A stretch of DNA of 64,000 nt, from contig OZ024740.1 of the NCBI GenBank assembly GCA_964016885.1, positions 122,512,001 through 122,576,000 on the forward strand, written 5' to 3'. Shown piece after piece: positions 6,411-59,524 of this stretch. Below the pieces are notes generated by a model, which worked only from the letters and a program-made list of their open reading frames with translations, ran no database searches and was not told where the DNA came from. A program made the position numbers and the translations under genes. Numbering within the stretch: the stretch's first letter is position 1; each line of letters begins with the position of its first letter. Origin of the DNA: Eledone cirrhosa (lineage: Eukaryota).

Positions 6411-6980
6411 ACTGTATAACAAAGTGCAGGGCAATAAAGATAGACGGTAGCCACGGAATAGGCAGACCTAGAAAAACCTGGGACGAGCTGATAAACTCCG
6501 ACCTCACGCACTTACACCTCTCCAAGACAATGTCACTGGACCGAGACCTTTGGCGGTACTCAGTAATAGAGAAGACCCGCCTTACCTAAATACATAGTAA
6601 AACCTACTACAGTCAGTAGGCATCTCTAACAAAATACACCCCCGCCCCATCACCCCCACCCCATCCACACCGCCCCCTTCTATGTAAAGTTATGTTGGTG
6701 CCACACCATCCAGGCCGAAACAAATGAGATCGTGTAGGTGTCACGACAAAAAAACACACAGTCCACGCTGTAATGTGGCCGTGTAGGCAACACGGTAAAA
6801 ACCTCCCAGACCCACACTGTAAATGTGGTTGGTGTTAGGAAGGGCATCCAACTGTAGAAAACCTGCCAGACAGTCCTATGCGAGCAAGGCAATCACTCTT
6901 GCCTCAAGTGGGAAAACCCCCGTCCAAACCCATGCAAGCGTGGAACACGGACGTTAAACGTTGATGATGATGATGATGAT
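6411..6980 (+). mobile_element. 5'-truncated RTE LINE (ORF C-terminus, 3' UTR, (GAT)n tail); same family as 56947-58650
   Basis: Near-identical by eye to the reverse complement of 56947-57500; encodes ...GRPRKTWDELINSDL..; ends aaacgttgatgatgatgat. Confidence 0.9.
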
Positions 6981-18154: not shown

Positions 18155-19810
18155 ATCATTCATCATCATCATCATCACTGTTTTTCATCCGTTCTTCCAT
18201 GCTAGCATGGGTTAGAGGGGTTGTCCTGTTGTGGGCAGTGTCTGGTCGGCTGACCATGCCTTGCTCATACAGGACCTGATTGTGGCTTGATTTCTACAGC
18301 TGGATGCCCTTCCTAATACCAACCTCATTTACAGTGAGTGCTGGGTGCTTTTTCTGTGGTGCATACATGTCCACTTTACAGTGTGTGCTGGATACTTTTT
18401 TGCCGTATCACCTCCACGACCACCTTGCAGTGGGAGGGTGTGGGGGCATATTGTCTATATGCTTCAGCTTGTACCCATGGGAGGTCGGGTACTCTGTATT
18501 ACTGCGTGATGCCAAAGGTCACGGTTGTGTGTCATCGCCTTTGAGAGGTGTAATTGGGTAAGATCGGCTTTTATCACCTCATCCCAGGTCTACTTGGGTC
18601 TCCCCACTCCGCAGTTTCCATTGACCTCTAGTGCTCTGCACCTTTTTATGCAGCTGTCATCCTTCATACGCATGACATGTCCATACCAACGCAACCGCCT
18701 CTCCTGCACACAGCATTTTATTCCTCTTATGCTCAGTCTCTCTCTCAATTCATTTATGCTTTGTCGTTTGCGTATATTACTATTACACATCCATCGGAGC
18801 ATGCAGGCTTCGTTTCTTTCTAATCTACATAAGTCTTCCACCTTCAGTGCCCAGGTCTCACTACCATGTAACATTGCTGTTCGGATACACGCATCATACA
18901 ATCTGCCTTTCATTTTGAGGGAGAAGCCTTTTGCAGCTAGTAGTGGCAGAACTTCTTCCATCCCATTCTTTCCCTAGTTATTGTACTTTCTGAACACCCA
19001 CCTCTGCTGCTAATTCGGTCACCTAGGTAGCAGAAGCTGTCTACTGTTTCTACAGAGCCCTCCCAGAGATTGGTGGTACTTGTTTCCTGTGGCTGATTTG
19101 CTGCTTGCTGTCCCAGCACAGCTGCTGCATGTGAAGCCTACATTCTTAATTAAGCTTCCTGAGATTCCGCTACATCTCTTGTGTACCATTGTTAGCATTT
19201 GGGGCAGAGAATGGAGTTCCTACCTACACCTTTCCTACATACTGAGCAAAGCCATTTCCCTGAGGGGATCTGTGTGCTGTTTTCTCGTCTACTTACAAGG
19301 ACGTTAGTCTTTGTCATGTTGACTTTGAGACCCTTTCTTTCTAGTCCCTGCTTCCAAGTTTGGAATTTCTTCTCTAGTTCTACCATAGATTCAGCTATAA
19401 GTGTGAGGTCATCAGCATACAGATGTTCCCATGGGCATCCGGTCTTAAACTCCTCCGTTATTTTCTGCAGGACTATGATGAACAGGAGAGGGGTAAGAAC
19501 AGAGCCCTGGTGGACACCAACCTGTACGCTAAATTCCTCGCTATACTCATTACTAATCCTAACTTTGCTGACTGCTCCCCTATACATGGCTTGTACAGCT
19601 TTCACAAGCCATTCATCTACTCCTAGTTTTCTAAGAGCCCACCAGATTACAGCACGTGGAACTCTGTCAAAGGCTTTCTCGAGATCGACGAATGCCAGGT
19701 AGAGTGGCTTACTTTTAGCTAGGTACTTTTCCTGTAACTGCCTCACAAGGAAGCGGGCATCAGTGGTGCCTCTTCCTGGTACAAACCCAAATTGCATCTC
19801 ATCTAGTTTC
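18155..19810 (-). mobile_element. 5'-truncated RTE LINE (RT to 3' UTR), frameshifted
   Basis: ORFs 19192-19812 (QFGFVPGRG, FVDLEKAFDRV, GVHQGSVL, LYADD) and 18590-18961 (AMLHGSETW, RLRWYGHV, GRP); (GAT)n tail near 18155-18177. Confidence 0.93.
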
Positions 19811-20819
19811 ATTGTGTCTTTTTATTATAACATCTATACTAAAAGTTTCTTTCTGCTCCAGATTGGTCATTTTCATTTTGGAGTATCCATTATCAACATA
19901 ATTATAGATTCATTTTCCATGTGTATGTGTGTGTGGGAGGGGGATGCATTGAAATGTATGCACATCGTGATCATCTCCATCATTACCTAATATGTATTTG
20001 TTCTGCTACCAAGGGCTGGGTAGGTCATCAGAGACCGATTCAGTATTCAAACAGTGCTACTGACTTCTCTGATGAACTGCATTTGCTTATATACATTTGC
20101 TTACATGCATTTGCTTACATACATTCCTGTAGTGTGCCAAGTGCAAGGACTGGCTGCAGGCACAGATCTTACTTACATATGTTCCTGGACTCTAGCAAGT
20201 GCAATTTATTGTTGCACACGCACTAGAGAATTTGTCATGCCATTGTCACATTTGAAGAATCCTAACAACCATTTATTTGGCAGGTTTTCTATGGCTGAAT
20301 AGTTTTCTAATTACCGACCATTTTACAGAATTTATTGGTTATGTTTATCATGTATATTTCCAACAGTAGAAAGGATTTTGTGACCTTGACACAGCAGAAG
20401 AAGTCTCTCAACCCTTTTTTAGGGGGGCCTGGTTTCTACAATGCCATAGTCTTCCTTTTGCCCACCACCTGATATGGTGTACTAGGTGCATTTTCAGGCT
20501 CTAGCTCTAAAAATGTTATCAGTCAATAATTCAACTGAATAGCCCTACAGCAGTTAAATAGGATGAGTGTTGAGGTGGGGTAAGAAGGATGATAAATATG
20601 ATGTGTGGTGATGTTTGAAAGGGTGATAAGTAGGAGGGGTAGTTGTCACATTTGATTGCATGTGGATAATGACAGCCAGCTACAAATGGAGGAATTCATG
20701 ACAGCGAGTCATAGATTTGGGCATCCTTGTTAATGTGGGAGAGTAATGGAAATTACAGTGTTGATGAGGAGTGCAAGTTGAATGGTGAATCAATGTGTCA
20801 TGTCACATTTTTAACCCTC

Positions 20820-41857: not shown

Positions 41858-42191
41858 CATTTGTAGTTTTCCCCAAATTGACGGTTAAGTATTTTTTTTG
41901 ATTTTATTACTTATCCCAAATCTTACGTTAAACATTTTTCATCTTGATGTTATGGTCACTTATATGTCTGAATTATTGTTGGCTTTTTGCTTACATTAAT
42001 TTCTCTATTTTCATTTATATATATATATATAATTAATAAATCTGTACTCCAAGGTAGTCGCATTGGATGGAGTCAACTGACGTCGGAGATTGCTCAACGT
42101 ATAATAAAATATAATAAAATATGCTTTAAAATCCGGAGAAAATATGAAGAAGAAGTTTATGAAACGGAAATGCGGGTATAAAGAATTTACT

Positions 42192-42308
42192 AGGTAACAA
42201 TTGTTTCTATAGTGTGTGGGTTACCTATACCTCGTTATTTGTATAATATAAACATATTATCATAAATCGCAGGTACACTGTAAGAGAACACACCATGTCG
42301 TCAGACCT
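42192..42308 (-). ncRNA. Type I hammerhead ribozyme with ~90-nt stem II, in the 3' pLTR
   Basis: Minus: aggt CTGACGA c-atggtgtgt...acacactat-a GAAAC aatt GTT acct; palindromic stem III ACAATTGT. Confidence 0.7.
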
Positions 42309-42687
42309 TTATGATAGGAGAATATTTTATACACTAGATATGTGAGAAAGTAGGAGGTAGGGAGGGAAGCGAGTAAGGGGGAGGTAGTCTTAGATTCAAG
42401 ACTGTCAGAGTAGTAGAGATTGTATAGAAGAAAATGTTTTGGCAGCAGTTAGCTAAATGAGGCGTGTTAGGGTTGGCGGGGGAAGTAAATTCTTCTCGTG
42501 GTGATCAACGTAGTACAGAATTATAGACGAGTTATTGGGGCTATTATAGTAGCAGGATATTTCTAAAGGAGTCTAAAAAACAGTGTTTAGTGTTATTATT
42601 ATAAAAAGCGATATCGTGTGTATAAAGATATAAAAATATGAAATAAAAATAATAAAAATTTGCAAATGGTGGTGTAAAAAGATAACA

Positions 42688-44959
42688 TTACATGCATTTA
42701 AAAAAAGAAAAAGTCGTTTTTAAACGATGGTTACAGTAAAGTGAACGTTCAATTTTGCTGTTCAAAAGTTTGTTTTCCGACGTTAAAATGCAGTATATCT
42801 CCATATTGCATAATTTACAAAATCGCTGATTTTGCTTATATGCTGGCGCAAATGCAATAATTTGCCAATCAAGGGAGAATGCTTGATTGTTCTTCCGAAG
42901 CTGCCAGGCTTTATCGGCGAGGGTTGTTACGGAGCGCATTTTCTCATGCTTGATCGAGGATCGATGTTGGTATAGGCGAGCTTTGAAAGATGTTGCGGTA
43001 CATCCGACGTAATACCATTTGTTGGTTCCGGAATTTATTGTACATCGGTAGACAATATTGCGTGTTAGGCATTGGTTATTCAATGGGCACGAACCTGGTT
43101 TAGTGCAGTTACAGTTATTTTTATGTTTTGCAGTAGTATCCTGGATAGTTTGGTGGGGTTGTAGCTGCGTGTTAGTCCGTTGTATGTCGCTATGCTGGTG
43201 CGCTGTGTCATTAGGGATGTACTTATTTAGTATTGTTGAGTTGAGCTTTTTAATTAGTTGCTCTATGTTAGGTGCAGTGGAGTATGAGAGTCTAATGGTG
43301 CGCGAGTTTAAGATTCTATAGTATTTATGTGAAGTTGTAAAGTGTTTATTGATCAGTGTATAGAATTGTGAGATAATCTTAGTGCTAATAGAAATATTGT
43401 ACACGGGGTTATACCATATGTACTCTCTACGTCTAACTCTATTTGTTGGTTTGCACCTATTATTATGCCTATTAATGTGTCTGTGTGGTGCAATACTAGT
43501 TCGACTTAGATGTGATTTATTCATAGTACCTATGTGGTTATCTTCTAGATATTCTATTTTCTCGCAGTAACCAGCTTTTCTAAGTGCGTCGTTATAATAC
43601 TCAGCATGCTCGTTGAAGGTCTGCAAATTAGACGATAGTCGGGAGATCCTTATGGATATATTTTTAGGGATATATTTAATAATGGAATGGGGATGGTTCG
43701 ATCTTACATTAACGTATTTGAGATTTTCATTAAGTTTGTGAAATGGCGTTATTAAGATTGAAGGTGACATCCAAGAAATTGACCACTTTAAGATTGTGTT
43801 CGAAGGTAATACTAAGTCCTAGTTCTAAGAAAAGTTTCCTAATGTTTTTACGTCGCCTTTCTAGGTTTTGTTTGTTCATATTTTTGACTAATAGGAGTGC
43901 ATCATCACGGTAGATTCCGCCGTGGAGGTCAATAAATTCGCTCTGGAGTCTGTGAGCTATATAGATTCCAACCAAATCCGTAACTTCCGCCGAATCATTA
44001 GAACTCATCGTAATGTCAAATCCCGAGGGTCTATATCTGCGGACCCAATAACTATTTTCAAGATGGACTACTGTGCGTCTAGCTTCAAGTATAATATTAA
44101 TATCTTCGTTTGTGAGGTTCGAGTTAACCTTAGCGAATGAGAAGGCCTTATGCAGAGTTTCAGGTGAAATAGAGGAATAGTATTTATCTATATCGAATTG
44201 AATAAAAGAAGATTTGTTTTGTCACTGGTGTTATTGAACCAACTTATTGCCTGTTGAGTATTACCCCATAATTTAATATCTACCTTAGCCTTAACTTGAG
44301 TGATAATACGATCTAATATGTACTTACTGATTCTATCTATATCAGATTTTGAAGGACATATCAATCTAATTGTAGGGTTAGTATCGAAGTTAGCCTTATG
44401 GTCCTTCAAATTAAAAGTCGGTGTAGCTGGAGATAGGGGGTCCGTTCTGTCGTCGATTTTCAGTTTCTTAACAATATCACATGCTGCGTTATTAATGTTG
44501 GTTAGTGTAGTTGCGTTTGTTTTTTTTGTACTTCGTATGTAATTCCTTACGTATAAAATTATTATATGTTTCTACATCTAGGGTATATAGATTCGATGTT
44601 TTGTCTGCCTTTATAATAATTCATTTGGTATTTCTTAAGTTGCCGAGTAGAGTTTTAATCTCCCGTTGCAGTTCGTTTTTCCTTCCGTTTGCAAATTTGA
44701 TTCCGGTTATCATTTTCATTAAGTCTTGCTCGAAAGAATCCAGAAGAGGGTTAGAGGGTGGGTTTTTGTAGGATTTGAAATCAAACTTATCGTTGTTGGT
44801 GTTGGAAGTTTGTGTAATCCTATTCCTATCGAAGTGAAAGGCCTTCCATCTAATCCGCCGAATAAATTCGTTGGTCCTTTGTATCATACCAATAATGTAT
44901 TCTTTTTTACCCTAAACGGGTATGTTTTTTAAGGACATACCACAATGATCTTTTTCCAT
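42688..44959 (-). pseudogene. PLE polyprotein (RT + C-terminal GIY-YIG endonuclease), broken by stops and frameshifts
   Basis: SLKNIP, FIRRIRWKA, KDHKANF...RLICPSKSD, GIYRDD, VNFLDVT, SNHP, WYNP, CNC..CPL...C, IVYRC...YYVGCT..FKAR..QH, CKLCNME, CNH. Confidence 0.9.
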
Positions 44960-45274
44960 TTCGGAGACGTAGGTTGGTAGGTTACTCGACTGTAAAGGAG
45001 TGTGAAGAATTAATAAATCTGTACTCCAATGTTACTAGGTAGTCGCATTGGATGGGGTCAACTGACGTCGGAGATTGCTCAACGTATAATAAAATATAAT
45101 ACAATATGCTTTAAAATCCGGAGAAAATATGAAAAAGAAGTTTATGAAACGGAAATGCGGGTATAAAGAATTTACTAGGTAACAATTGTTTCTATAGTGT
45201 GTGGGTTACCTATACCTTGCTATTTGTATAATATAAAAATATTATCATAATATTCTCCTATCATTCTTCCATAA

Positions 45275-45391
45275 AGGTCTGACGACATGGTGTGTTCTCT
45301 TACAGTGTACCTACGATTTATGATAATATTTTTATATTATACAAATAGCGAGGTATAGGTAACCCACACACTATAGAAACAATTGTTACCT
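45275..45391 (+). ncRNA. Second copy of the long-stem-II hammerhead, in the inverted pLTR
   Basis: aggt CTGACGA(45279-85) ... GAAAC(45376-80) aatt GTT acct. Confidence 0.7.
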
Positions 45392-45434
45392 AGTAAATTC
45401 TTTATACCTGCATTTCCGTTTCATAAACTTCTTC

Positions 45435-45473
<39 letters not shown>

Positions 45474-52379: not shown

Positions 52380-53770
52380 GAGGAGGTTATTTCTGCTTGA
52401 TATATCACTGTTGGGGACTTGCACTGTTTATTTAGTGGGCATGTCTCTGTCATCTGCATGAGCATCCATAAGGTGGAAAACTTTTGCGTTTGCCTATGAT
52501 GTGGGCTTTTAGCTTACTGGTACAAGAGGAGCCTATTTTCACTGTACGGTGAGTGAATATGTCAATTTATTGAGGCTATTAATAAGATTTTACAAAAGTA
52601 TAGTGGGTGGCTAGAGTCCTTATGAATGTACCCATGTTTTTCACTGGGCTTGTAGATTGGTCAGTATGCGATTGTACATAGTTCTAAATTAATGTCTAGG
52701 AAGTTAACATTGGTGAGGTTGGTAGATATTGTAATTTCTAAGCCTAGGCTGCTGAAGATAGTAATCAGGTTTTTTTCTGAACGTGTAAAGGTACTTTTAT
52801 GACTCAATAGTGCAAGACCATAATCATGATATAAGCCCATAAGGAAGTCAGGGAATTCCTTACGTAGTGTGTCTGAGATAAAAAGGCCCTCCAACTTGCA
52901 TATATCAGCACTGTTAAATGAAATGATTGGCACATCAAATGGGTCATTGTTAGTGGATTTCTTTATCCAGGGTCCTCATTATTAAAGAGGAGGGTGTTCA
53001 TGCAGAGGGATATTACTAATCGGTCTAACTTGTTTATATTGGAGAAATTATTAGTGAAATCCAGGGTCTTACCAAGTAAGGTCCTGGATATCGAGAGATA
53101 AAAGTCAACTATATCAAATTGAGTGAACCTAGTCTTTTTAGTGCATGTGAGGTTGTTAAAGCAATCTGTCTACTTGATTATTGTCCCACTCATTAAGGTT
53201 GGACTGTTGTCTAATAGTATATTAATGTTTGTTTCTAATTATATCTTTACTAACAAAACCTAATTCAATTTGGGAGAGTTTATGAGTCTGCATGTTGGTT
53301 TATTTTAGAAGACATCCCTATGATGTTTAAGTGTAATATAAGTCTTTCTCCTAGCCAAGCATTCTAACTTGTTATCTACTCAGAGGGTGGCAGCCCTCAT
53401 TATTGGGGGCAATTTTGCCTCATTTGCCTCATTATTTGGGGCATAATAAATAGCAGGCTCAGCGTTTTTATATTTAGACTGTATGGTCTTGTTCAGAAGT
53501 TGGTTGTAGGGAGAATGATCTAGTTCATAAAAATTGTTAGTTTTATCTGATGGGACAAAACTTTTTATCAGAAGATCTGAAGTATTTTATGTCACTAATT
53601 AGTTTATTCTGAAAGGAGTTGGAATGTTTGCGGAAAGATATATTAGCAACTAGGTTAAAAAGATCAGCTTCAAAAGTAATGAATTCATTTACCTTAAGTG
53701 GGTACTTTCTAGACCTCAGATCAAAAATATTATCTGAACATGGTAATTTCCCATCGAAGGCCATCCTCTT
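52380..53770 (-). mobile_element. Decayed second Naiad-like PLE RT fragment
   Basis: FEADLFNLVANISFRKHSNSFQ, DKTNNFY, TQFDIVDFY, GLYHDYGLA (YRDD relic), VNFLDINL. Confidence 0.8.
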
Positions 53771-55158: not shown

Positions 55159-55314
55159 CATCATCATCATCATCATCATCAACGTTTAACGTCCGTGTTC
55201 CACGCTTGCATGGGTTTGGACGGGGGTTTTCCCACTTGAGGCAAGAGTGATTGTCTTGCTCGCATAGGACTGTCTGGCAGGTTTTCTACAGTTGGATGCC
55301 CTTCCTAACACCAA
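55159..55314 (-). mobile_element. Short 3' tip of the young RTE family, apparently inserted into a decayed SINE A
   Basis: Almost exact reverse complement of 6827-6980; SINE-like sequence on both sides (55060-55158, 55315-55365). Confidence 0.88.
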
Positions 55315-55458: not shown

Positions 55459-56064
55459 GTCAGGTCACCAGTTGGTGCTACTGGTAACATGTATCCCAGT
55501 ACAACCTGTCCCATGGTCGGGTCGTTGGCGACTAAACTGGCAACCCCACCAAGGTTTCTTGGTGAGGAGGGTGACTTTGGACATCCTGCAGGACTAAAAA
55601 CAAAACCTGTCAAAGGGTAAAGGAGCTCTTAAGAGTCAATGGCCATCCAAAATCACCGGGAGAGATGACCCCTTAGCCTTTGTCAAGGCAGAATTCTAGG
55701 AGAAGGAAAACTCTGATATAACACCTGCAACCCTGATGGTATCCAATGATGTTGACTTGTTCTTCTTTTTGGTAAATATCATCTTGGTTAAGAGAGTGGG
55801 ACTGGCTTTGTGCAGTGCCTTTGCTCACTATAAAAGCTTCACGGCACAGGCATTGCTTTATATCTGGAGATCTCTCTGCACTTGTCGTCACATGGTACCA
55901 TGGGCCCAGCACTATGTGTCAGTAATTGTCACAAGTGTAGTGTTTGTACCAGAGTTTTCAAGTCGCTGGCTGGACTAAAAAGTCACACTCGTTCAGCGCA
56001 TCGGTAGGGGTTCTCCTACATGGATATAAAGTAGTGGCCGTACTCGAAAACGAGTTGGCAGCCA

Positions 56065-56087
<23 letters not shown>
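55459..56087 (+). mobile_element. Bipartite non-autonomous RTE derivative (5' UTR joined to 3' end)
   Basis: 55665-55865 aligns with the 5' UTR of the RTE at 48880-49085 (minus); 55930-56006 encodes CSVCTRVFKSLAGLKSHTRSAHR*; ends ctcgaaaacgag hairpin then (TA)n. Confidence 0.75.
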
Positions 56088-56104
<17 letters not shown>

Positions 56105-56184
56105 GTTATTCCGGGTTGAATCAGAGGTAACCACAGTAAGTAAGGTACTCAATACATTGCAGAGTATAAAAGTTCTAATATAGA

Positions 56185-56239
56185 TGAGATTCTACAGGAC
56201 TAGAACTGTTTCATTCTTTAGAAATCATCAGGAACCTCA
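56185..56239 (-). ncRNA. Type I hammerhead ribozyme
   Basis: tgaggttc CTGATGA t-ttc-taaa-gaa-t GAAA cag-ttctagtc-ctg TA gaatctca: 8-bp stem I, 4-bp stem III, GUA cleavage triplet. Confidence 0.8.
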
Positions 56240-56241
56240 GT

Positions 56242-56290
56242 GATTCCTGATGATTTCTAAAGAATGAAACAGTTCTAGTCCTGTAGAATC
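56242..56290 (+). ncRNA. Type I hammerhead ribozyme (inverted copy, 5-bp stem I)
   Basis: gattc CTGATGA tttctaaagaat GAAA cag ttctagtc ctg TA gaatc. Confidence 0.75.
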
Positions 56291-56946
56291 TCATCTATAT
56301 TAGAACTATATATATATATATATATATATATACACCCACATGCAAGCAAACAAACAAACAAATAAGGAAGCAGATATTTCCATATTAATTGCTTATTGAT
56401 GCTAAGCTTCTATGAATAGACAAAATCCCAAACCGACAACATTTCAGATCCATGCATATATCCTTTATTAATTTATAATAGTAATAACAAGTTGCAGCAT
56501 CGCTGATTCTTCAGATTTGATGAAGTTACATACATTTATTTTAGATATATGTACAATAAAATATTCTTTAAATAATACATACATACCAACACTCATTCTT
56601 CGAAAGCAATATTTCCATCAACAATCATAGAAAAATTTATTGAATAAACAAAAAATATACAACTATAGAACTCATTATTAATACACCCAAATTACATTTA
56701 ATATTTGTTGAAACTATTGGAATAACAAAAATGGATTGATGTATTGTTGTTTTTTGTTGCCTGGTTGCTTGCTTGGTTGTAGCAGGGCTAAGATCAATAT
56801 AAGGTTGTGGATCAAAGGAGGAGATAATTTGATTAATACACATAATATATACAATGAGATAATATATTTATGTATCCACACACACATATATATGTATATA
56901 TGTGTGTGTATGTGTGTGTGTGTATGTGTGTATTTATGTATATATA

Positions 56947-58650
56947 TCATCATCATCATCATCATCGTTTAACGTCCATGTTCCACGCTTGCATGGGTTT
57001 GGACGTTAGTTTTCCCATTTGAGGCAAGAGTGGTTGTCTTGTTCGCATAGGACTGTCTGGCGGGTTTTCTACAGCTGGATGCCCTTCCTAACACCAACCA
57101 CATTTACAGTGTGGGACTGGGAGGTTTTTACCGTGTTGCCTACACGGCCACATTACAGCGTGGACTGTGTGTTTTTTTGTCATGACACCTACACGATCTC
57201 ATTTGTTTCGGCCTGGATGTTGTGGCACCAACATAACTTTGCATTGAAAGGGGCGGGGTGGATGGGGCGGGGGTGTATTTTGTTAGAGATGCCTACTGAC
57301 TGTAGTAGGTTTTACTTTGTATTTAGGTAAGGCGGGTCTTCTCTATTACTGAGTGCCGCCAAAGATCTCGGTCCAGTGACATTGTCTTGGAGAGGTGTAA
57401 GTGTGTGAGGTCGGAGTTTATCAGGTCGTCCCAGGTTTTTCTGGGTCTGCCTACTCCGTGGCTACCGTCTATCTTTATTGCCCTGCACTTTTTTATACAG
57501 CTGTCGTCTGTCATGCGCATCACGTGACCATACCAATGTAGCCTTCTCTCGAGTAAACAACATCTGATCCCTCTTATTTCTAATTTTTCCCTTAGTTCGT
57601 TTATGCTTTGCCGTTCGCGTATGTTACTATTACACATCCAGCGGAGCATGCAAGCTTCATTCCTCTCTAGTCTGCGTATATCCTCTGCACACAATGCCCA
57701 GGTCTCACTGCCATGCAACATTGCCGTTCGTATGCAGGCATCATACAGCCTGCCTTTCATTTTTAGGGAGAACCCTTTAGCAGCTAATAGTGGTATAAGC
57801 TCTCTGAACTTTTTCCATCCTGTTCTGACTCTAGCTACTGTACTTTCAGAGAACCCTCCCCCACTGCTGATTTTGTCACCCAGGTAACGGAAGCTGTCCA
57901 CTATTTCTATAGAACCCTCTGCGCAATTGAAAGAGCTAGTATTTTGTGGGCACTTGCTGCTACTTTTTGCACCAGAGCACCGGCCACATGTAAAATCTAT
58001 GTTCTTAGTTAGCTTACCTATGATCCCACTACATCTTTTATGCACCCATACTTTGCATTTGGGACATAAAATGGAGTTTCTCCCTATGCCTTTCCTACAC
58101 ACTGAGCATGGCCATTTCCCGGAAGGGACCGGCGCCATATTTTCTTTCCTATAAACTAGAACTTTAGTCTTAGCCAGGTTAATTTTAAGGCCTTTTGATT
58201 CTAGGCCGTGCTTCCATGTTTGGAATTTCTTCTCTAACTCGGTCATTGATTCAGCTGTGAGCGTTAGATCATCTGCGTGTAGGAGTTCCCATGTGCAGCC
58301 GGTCTTGAACTCCACGGTTATAGCCTGAAGGGCAATAATAAATAGTAGGGGACTAAGAACAGAGCCCTGATGAACACCAACTTTTACGCTAAACTCTTCA
58401 CTATATTCGTTGTTAATTCTAACCTTGCTGACTGTTTCTTTATACATGGCTTGTATAGCTCTCACAAGCCATTCATCAACACCTAGTTTTCTAAGAACCC
58501 ACCAGATAATGGAACGGGGGACTCTGTCGAAGGCTTTCTCCAAGTCGACGAAAGCTAAGTATAGGGGTTTACTTTTAGCTAGGTACTTCTCCTGTAGTTG
58601 TCGTACAATGAAAAGAGCGTCTGTGGTACTTTTGCCTGACACAAACCATA
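56947..58650 (-). mobile_element. Young 5'-truncated RTE LINE
   Basis: Uninterrupted RT-to-stop frame, 3' UTR and (GAT)n tail. Confidence 0.95.
57323..58650 (-). pseudogene. RTE reverse transcriptase C-terminal ~440 aa with embedded PHD-type finger; no native start, YADD reads HADD
   Basis: FVDLEKAFDRV, GVHQGSVLSP, LLHADDL, GLKIN..KTK, C4HC3 motif, FRYLG, AMLHGSETW, WYGHV, GRPRKTW. Confidence 0.9.
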
Positions 58651-59524
58651 TCTTCAAGTGTAACATCCATATCTTCAAGTGTATGTTATGGTATATATAC
58701 ACACACACTTTCACACACCGTAGCGATGTCCGACAAAAAACAAATATAATAAATATAAGAATGTACCAACACAGCACTCACCGAAAGTTAGTGCACAAAT
58801 CAACAGAAGCTATCTCGGTCAAATCTCAATTTGACGATATAAATTGGAAATATTGGGTTAAGCAACGCCCCCCACATATATACACACGCGCGCGTGCGCA
58901 AGTAAGTTCAGTTCAGTGTTCTGCTCTACGTGTAAAGATCGAATTGTAACATCCATATCTTCAAATGTATGTTATGGTATATACACATCCGAGTCGTCCA
59001 AAAAAGGATATGTCCGGGAATATACAGATCCATGTGAAGAGCAGGCAATCAGCTCATGTCGAACTCCTTGTGTGCCGCTGTCCCATTGAGAATCAGTGTT
59101 ACCAAATCCATGCGTGCAAGCAACTGCAATGTAGGCCGGCAAAGGGCTCCGTGTAGGGTTGGGTATTGGGTAAATGCGTCCGCAAGTGCGATTTCCCGTC
59201 ATATGGGCCAATGAGCTTTTAAGATAGTTGTTTGAGTGGTGGAGGTGTGTTATCCAACACAGAAGGTGAAGTAAGAAAACACAGGACAGTCAAATCCAAA
59301 GGAAGTGTGTAGGCCCATTAATGGTGTGTCAGTATTATTGTTCAATCCGTAACAGTGAGTCCACCATGGTTAGATGATCACGCATCAGAACCTGGTGTTG
59401 TATTCAGTCGGTAGGAACGTGACAGTCGTAATTGTGGGAGCTCAATGTCTAAAGGAAACGGGTACTGTGTGTAGAGCTATGTATAGAGAGCGTAATCGGT
59501 CCTAACTAAGTGTGTAACTAAGTG

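Follow-up and report, generated by a model that had tools for sequence, protein, structure and literature searches.

A 204-base unit in the window, the 64-kb stretch of Eledone cirrhosa DNA analyzed here, is a stub, lacking a promoter, of a Penelope-like element (PLE) of the Hydra clade. Its perfect palindrome probably arose by twin priming at two staggered sites of a single pLTR transcript that was capped and not cleaved, with subsequent end-joining. The second, mirror-image hammerhead that the palindrome contains is likely a by-product of copying rather than an RNA switch. Taken by itself, the locus is ordinary repeat debris. The population of such stubs, however, is a large natural experiment on how the inverted ends and tails of PLEs form, which is an open question in the PLE literature, and it yields concrete predictions for an existing in vitro system. 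The parts of the locus are listed here, with element positions counted from +1, the first base of hammerhead stem I in the parent.

56067..56103, no strand: (TA)n target tract at the tailed end, after the end of an unrelated repeat
56104..56237, minus strand: main piece, element +1 to +134, from the putative transcription start to the putative distal RT start site (blastn against the full-length copy L151)
56104..56170, minus strand: PLE tail, +68 to +134, at one end only (parent alignment)
56185..56239, minus strand: sense type I hammerhead motif, with core 56231-56225, GAAA 56212-56209, and predicted cut 56193/56192
56238..56241, no strand: junction filler of 4 nt, absent from the parent, in the gap between the two aligned pieces
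56242..56307, plus strand: inverted arm, element +2 to +67, ending at the putative proximal RT start site (alignment to L151)
56242..56290, plus strand: second (mirror) hammerhead motif, with a 5-bp stem I and predicted cut 56285/56286
56307..56332, no strand: (TA)n target tract at the tail-less end (read from the sequence)

The two arms of the inverted repeat (56171-56234 and 56244-56307) are 64 nt each and 100% complementary across a 9-nt spacer; when the 4.5-kb region was shuffled 50 times by mononucleotide, perfect inverted repeats reached at most 18 bp. Both the perfect 64-bp palindrome and the unit of about 200 bp between two (TA)n runs, as described in the first-pass annotation, are borne out. 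The nonpalindromic part of the unit is the 67-base tail, whose counterpart in the parent is 5' UTR upstream of the first ATG of the ORF (+182). The main piece aligned to L151, a natural full-length copy, over 134 nt with 94% identity. It shares with the inverted arm a rare variant, G at 56303, which 8 of the 169 matches to the motif among the fetched loci also show. The filler base at 56238 is an extra G immediately 5' of +1 on the minus strand and may be cap-like. The motif that precedes the tract at 56067-56103 also precedes TA tracts in two other loci (L033 and L056). The repeat at 55460-56066 ends in the (TA)n tract that the stub entered, and an abundant LINE-like repeat that encodes RT and has (ATC)n ends is present several times in the window (55163-55314, 56946-57500, 6412-6980, 57326-58777, and 18486-19821).

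A descriptor scan for type I hammerheads on both strands of the whole 64 kb returned exactly two sites, both in the palindrome. Each has CUGAUGA, 12 nt, GAAA, a 4-bp stem III, and the UA end of the cleavage triplet. All core bases are kept in both motifs (C3-A9, G12-A15.1, U16.1, and H17), and stem II starts with a U10.1-U11.1 mismatch followed by 3 bp. The earlier description of a complete type I hammerhead on each strand agrees with the descriptor scan, but the unconstrained minimum-energy fold of the isolated motifs differs from the hammerhead fold, and stem II opens with U-U. The stem I lengths given there, 8 bp on the minus strand and 5 bp on the plus strand, were also recovered. However, the minus-strand stem contains one G-U pair and 2 outer base pairs from the junction filler; since the parent has a 6-bp stem I and lacks the filler, the 8-bp stem is partly filler. 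The proposed search with the Rfam hammerhead models missed the gathering score: none gave a match at an E value of ≤1 in one scan, and the best in another was Hammerhead_3 at 13.1 bits (E = 1.7; gathering score, 48.5 bits). Other Rfam matches were hairpin-driven miRNA matches below threshold and were dismissed as chance.

Core columns are conserved in 204 to 216 of 216 genomic instances, a biased sample in that the pattern allowed up to 4 mismatches. Stem I covaries among these instances (pair 4 is A-U in 148 and C-G in 21; pair 6 is A-U in 99 and G-C in 30), and this covariation lies between subfamilies, amounting to one or two subfamily events and not many. In the same pattern-biased sample, stems II and III are invariant and loop II varies, with 25 loop types. 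Of the covariation in stems I and III that had been proposed as a check, that of stem I was thus found, between subfamilies, whereas stem III did not vary in the 216 instances. From the stem I covariation, the hypervariable loop II, and the constant core and stems II and III, the motif looks maintained in the parent lineage. Positions 10.1-11.1 are U-U in 214 of 216 instances instead of the usual G-C; this is a tolerated natural variant (Perreault 2011), and the U-U form is common in the Hydra hammerheads of File S2 of Craig et al. (2021, PMC8557442). Metazoan PLE hammerheads have been described as cleaving poorly or needing protein (Frangieh et al. 2024, PMC11167929; Cervera & de la Pena 2014, PMC4209133).

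The parent was defined by working from longer copies to a PLE-type ORF, followed by a protein search and by the fetching of 16 ORF-bearing copies. Full-length parents were found elsewhere in the 3.0-Gb genome. The parent consists of a pLTR of about 500 nt with TATAAATA, the hammerhead, a 758-codon RT/GIY-YIG frame, a microsatellite-rich UTR of 2 to 3.5 kb, and a second pLTR. A hammerhead lies immediately upstream of the frame in 14 of the 16 fetched parents and downstream of it in 15, and the TATA box, TATAAATA, is 30 nt upstream of +1. A motif scan of the 758-codon frame placed the RT first (YRDD at 392) and the GIY-YIG C terminally (YIGMT at 647) in a single ORF. It also found DKT, the CxCX5C linker, CxxC, and CxH, with GxKF/Y and CX2-5CxxC absent from the parent protein. 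Pfam, applied to a partial protein, gave GIY-YIG alone, as a weak match below the cutoff (E = 0.012). Matched by these motifs to the definition of Craig et al. (2021, PMC8557442), and with the (TA)n insertion preference and the hammerhead in the pLTR both seen in family copies, the parent of the stub family matches a Hydra-clade PLE at the sequence level. The parent carries RWR at position 83 where the Hydra clade has RWK, a conservative change, and its hammerhead-to-hammerhead length of about 4.7 to 6.3 kb is not below 3 kb, since the microsatellite UTR is long; a length of <3 kb is given for the clade as "generally" true and is not diagnostic (Craig et al. 2021, PMC8557442). A search for homologues gave 45 proteins with 32 to 44% identity, most of them unnamed and one named and from Argonauta, and was left out of the clade assignment. 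The parent is a new family within a known clade. Its open 758-codon frame is kept in many copies (L150 to L165) and 150 scored protein matches have 95 to 100% identity, indicating that the family is a very recent burst. The 3' UTR of these copies is a mixed TA/TG microsatellite of 2 to 3.5 kb whose length differs among copies. The reading of the unit as a very recent miniature PLE-derived insertion holds, given the parent, siblings that are 97 to 99% identical, and the stem I covariation.

The locus is not rare. A DNA search of the genome gave 835 candidates, the best 40 of which had 97 to 100% identity, and 29 further rows were adjoining inverted arms. Exact patterns matched 19,170 hammerhead cores, 4,759 of them with the upstream context of the parent, and 4,018 head-to-head junctions at the 5' edge of the hammerhead, with 0 matches for a backward control; the patterns used for counting fixed 22 to 32 bases, and ratios between these counts are therefore approximate. 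The core-count pattern and the two-tail pattern used below were run in shortened form. Many family copies are single pieces without an inverted arm. Exact counts were skewed between strands (10,645 versus 8,525 for cores; 3,238 versus 1,521 for cores with upstream context), possibly from large tandem arrays. One head-to-tail tandem array (G000:C1:83679807-83691725) has eleven same-strand, hammerhead-bearing pLTR ends spaced about 1.07 to 1.1 kb apart and could be retrozyme-like. The family, with both stem I subfamilies, is also present in contigs of a sequencing run labeled as another organism. For the unit in the window, identity as a retrozyme was rejected, as it is a single head-to-head unit with no head-to-tail tandem hammerheads; identity as a MITE or DNA transposon was rejected on the one-sided tail, the variable joints, and the retroelement parent.

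The 5' ends of the pieces point to a common start. Among pieces that do not run upstream, 105 of 131 start at -1 to +8 (in a sample partly chosen by junction), and these ends cluster 30 nt behind the TATA box. Where +1 stands directly against (TA)n, the next base on the cDNA strand is C in 40 of 81 loci, the parent-templated G in 18, and A or T in 23, as counted by hand in the first 100 of 230 rows. In a second hand count, which took the first 100 non-G rows, C followed +1 in 75; many of these are microhomology joints. At some joints (L010 and L015) both pieces carry an extra G. An extra 5' G is a cap signature at full-length L1 insertions (PMC11702581); terminal-transferase bias or microhomology to stem I could be another source of the extra C on the cDNA strand. 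Hammerhead cleavage was rejected as an origin of this fixed 5' end, since it would cut at +45/46, away from the joints at +1 to +8. Joints within 14 nt around the cleavage site were found in only 36 palindromes, most of them keeping upstream bases, compared to 4,018 at the 5' edge, indicating that the template was uncleaved. This is additional, genomic evidence that cleaved hammerhead products hardly ever serve as template. The +1 region of the parent also reads as a U-rich tract followed by CAG, which resembles a splice acceptor. However, this reading appears less likely, since the AG is included in many pieces, which end at it, and nothing resembling a splice donor was found downstream of the +1 region.

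The 3' ends fall at two sites. Of 170 element pieces, 67 end at +60 to +73, 91 at +133 to +143, and 1 at +123, and the other 11 continue into the ORF. The tail-less site is also the 3' end of long main copies in 10 of 16 parents. The two ends of a palindrome differ: 47 of 50 junction-anchored stubs are tailed on one side, none on both, and 3 were unscored (45, 0, and 5, respectively, in a stricter test). Long head-to-head pairs behave alike, with 13 of 14 one tailed and 0 two tailed in a sample partly selected for one tail. Genome-wide, 27 two-tail palindromes were found, versus about 660 expected if ends were chosen independently. The two arms carry the same variants. All 50 young pairs have the same loop II variant in both arms (40 TAAA and 10 TAAT; P of about 4e-9 under random pairing), overall concordance is 64 of 74 pairs versus a permuted mean of 24, and the stem I type is discordant between arms in 1 of 61 pairs (L121). 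Older copies have decayed to 2 to 8 mismatches between arms. The shared variants indicate that the same template was read for both arms. Arm identity as such is equally expected from snap-back, from arm-to-arm gene conversion, or from a single master locus active at a time.

In L075 the tailed piece begins directly after the end of the tail-less arm, which spans +2 to about +66. The tail-less arms of L078, L091, and L095 extend further 5' than the tailed piece, and in L158 each piece extends beyond the other. Arm-to-tail joints were also recovered from raw Illumina reads of three samples. Arms with sequence absent from the tailed piece indicate two independent cDNAs, although one-sided deletion after insertion could mimic the abutting class.

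We propose the following route, whose observed parts are the family, the parent, the two fixed 3' end sites, the one-tail rule, the joint position, and the sharing of variants, and from which we infer the transcription start, the cap, nicking, priming, strand displacement, and joining. The TATA promoter of the pLTR would give a capped RNA starting at +1, and the element's GIY-YIG would nick both strands of a (TA)n tract. One 3'-OH would prime at about +134 and the other at about +60 to +70, and both RTs would pass the uncleaved hammerhead to the RNA 5' end. The distal RT would displace the proximal cDNA and would sometimes halt where that cDNA begins. The cDNA ends would then be joined by 1 to 2 nt of microhomology or by short filler, and the mirror hammerhead would be a passenger, trapped within the 64-bp hairpin of any read-through RNA. 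We lean, with little more than an even chance of being right, to the broader view that PLEs generally integrate by programmed staggered twin priming, in which one RNP uses both nicked strands and two fixed sites 60 to 70 nt apart on a single capped, uncleaved RNA. One rule would then account for the inverted pLTR, the one-sided tail, and, where the RNA starts at the pLTR's own promoter, the roughly 19,000 miniature palindromes of two families in this genome; joints would in that case map PLE transcription starts from DNA alone.

The second family invoked here is a pLTR family, seen in L048, L049, L055, L057, L060, and L064, with 14,931 exact head-to-head junctions genome-wide. All 9 of its palindromes in the fetched loci are one tailed, and it has a short tail motif in common with the first family. 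It has only the 3' half of a hammerhead (GAAAC, a stem III with a palindromic GAGCUC loop, and GUC), and in the two long copies checked there was no CUGANGA within 600 nt upstream. A complete hammerhead thus appears to be unneeded for palindrome formation. Its joints fall at an Inr-like TTAGT that follows an AT-rich box by about 30 nt, and in L055 it lies downstream of another Hydra-like endonuclease (41% identity). The window itself holds two other PLE remnants on the minus strand. One, at 42061-45472, is a decayed, frameshifted, near-full-length PLE of another Hydra-like family (38 to 50% protein identity), with an inverted 5' arm (45127-45441) that adjoins (TA)n and a CUGACGA half-core in the 3' pLTR. 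The other, at 52604-53734, is a more distant PLE RT fragment (29 to 44% identity).

Two other ways of making the palindrome were weighed against twin priming on one RNA. A single cDNA that reaches the RNA 5' end could fold back, copy its own last 55 to 75 nt, and then join (TA)n. Such snap-back fits the identical arms, the shared private variants, and the tight joints in most stubs, and a related idea, self-priming on an antisense template, is in print for PLE palindromes (Arkhipova 2013, PMC3846280). We nevertheless consider it unlikely. It cannot yield tail-less arms with sequence missing from the tailed piece (L075, L078, L091, L095, L158, and the raw-read joints) unless a one-sided deletion followed. 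It also leaves unexplained why the tail-less end site serves as the 3' end of long main copies and why an extra G is present on both pieces. The second alternative is twin priming on two RNAs held by a protein dimer, with asymmetric start sites and perhaps with the RNAs paired through loop III. That 8-nt loop bears a palindromic CUAG, with a predicted self-pairing of -12.8 kcal/mol as a duplex versus -1.4 kcal/mol as a hairpin, which favors a dimer form such as has been described for PLE hammerheads (Cervera & de la Pena 2014, PMC4209133). Dimerization of the PLE protein has also been predicted (Frangieh et al. 2024, PMC11167929). Two RNAs would also give fully overlapping arms without strand displacement. 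However, all 50 young pairs are concordant despite two coexisting loop variants, and the exact abutting in L075 fits one molecule, which makes a two-RNA route rather improbable.

The first-pass annotation had raised the possibility of a fold switch, in which a self-cleaving motif competes with the hairpin in transcripts of either direction. Conservation of the core bases in both motifs and the 64-bp double-stranded RNA that would form upon transcription speak for an evolved bidirectional switch, but we regard one as very improbable. The predicted hairpin of the full unit (-116/-119 kcal/mol) is favored over the hammerhead-constrained fold (-38/-39 kcal/mol) by about 78 kcal/mol. Since the pieces lie head to head, the antisense arm would be transcribed first on either strand, and cotranscriptional folding would therefore not be expected to rescue the ribozyme. 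The stub also lacks the TATA promoter of the parent, the joints differ among copies, older copies decay, and the family without an upstream CUGANGA makes the same palindromes. The fold-switch idea was thus not sustained. A role of the predicted hairpin as an ADAR or siRNA substrate, which had also been suggested, is physically plausible, and about 19,000 near-perfect 55- to 75-bp hairpins could, if transcribed, contribute double-stranded RNA or substrate for editing.

Long-read sequencing is known to produce perfect palindromes as an artifact, and the exact locus is spanned by no independent record (TA runs and the repeat break the records), but an assembly or library fold-back origin is hardly credible given the fixed biological ends, the one-tail asymmetry, the age-graded divergence of the arms, and the presence of the family's head-to-head joints in Illumina reads and contigs.

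The parent resembles the Hydra-clade, C-terminal-EN PLEs of Craig et al. (2021, PMC8557442) in having RT and then GIY-YIG in one ORF, in DKT, the CxCX5C linker, CxxC, and CxH without GxKF/Y, in (TA)n targets, and in a hammerhead within the pLTR. File S2 of that study has entries of the CUGAUGAU...UGAA form and others with the ACAG/CUGU-A stem III, and it also lists Penelope-13_HM with an inverted 5' copy and an antisense hammerhead. In contrast to that clade as described there, the parent is longer (about 4.7 to 6.3 kb between hammerheads versus <3 kb), has RWR instead of RWK, has a loop III of 8 nt versus 0 to 3 nt in the Hydra rows, differs in hammerhead sequence from Hydra-1_oBim, and has left thousands of 200-bp stubs.

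The head-to-head architecture with a one-sided tail is already known for PLEs. The typical insertion unit (Arkhipova 2013, PMC3846280; Craig 2021, PMC8557442, Fig. 2) likewise has a head-to-head inverted copy of the pLTR that is truncated 5', an optional tail at one end, and TATA/Inr in the pLTR, and opposite-strand hammerhead pairs 100 to 700 bp apart have been reported (Cervera & de la Pena 2014, PMC4209133). The tail is 60 to 70 nt here versus 30 to 40 nt in the typical unit, and both pieces here stop at one point, so that the whole insert is only 200 bp. Arkhipova (2013, PMC3846280) ascribed head-to-head PLE palindromes to self-priming on an antisense template and called the question open; our data favor two primers on sense RNA. 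In the openly accessible literature searched, we found no proposal of a twin-priming model for PLEs.

The closest biochemical parallel is the purified PAc Poseidon PLE protein, which nicks and extends both strands in vitro, starts RT at two internal sites with the tail between them, and takes unprocessed RNA, hammerhead cleavage being dispensable (Frangieh et al. 2024, PMC11167929). The use of both strands, the two sites bounding the tail, the AT-rich targets, and the uncleaved RNA are common to that system and the route proposed for the stubs. However, no start-site difference between strands was seen there, whereas the two ends here almost always differ, and inverted ends do not appear to be modeled in that work. 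Non-LTR retrozymes (bioRxiv 10.64898/2026.07.22.740005) are likewise noncoding, PLE related, and equipped with type I hammerheads, but they are head-to-tail tandems processed by cleavage, while the unit here is head to head and from uncleaved RNA. L1 twin priming (Ostertag & Kazazian 2001, as cited in PMC11702581) is similar in its second RT from the opposite DNA end and internal on the RNA, its inverted 5' segment, its microhomology end-joining, and its cap-derived extra 5' G. The second site varies in L1, and its two pieces meet with an overlap or a loss of 1 to 10 bp (PMC11702581); in contrast, both sites are fixed here and the pieces usually overlap fully, which gives palindromes.
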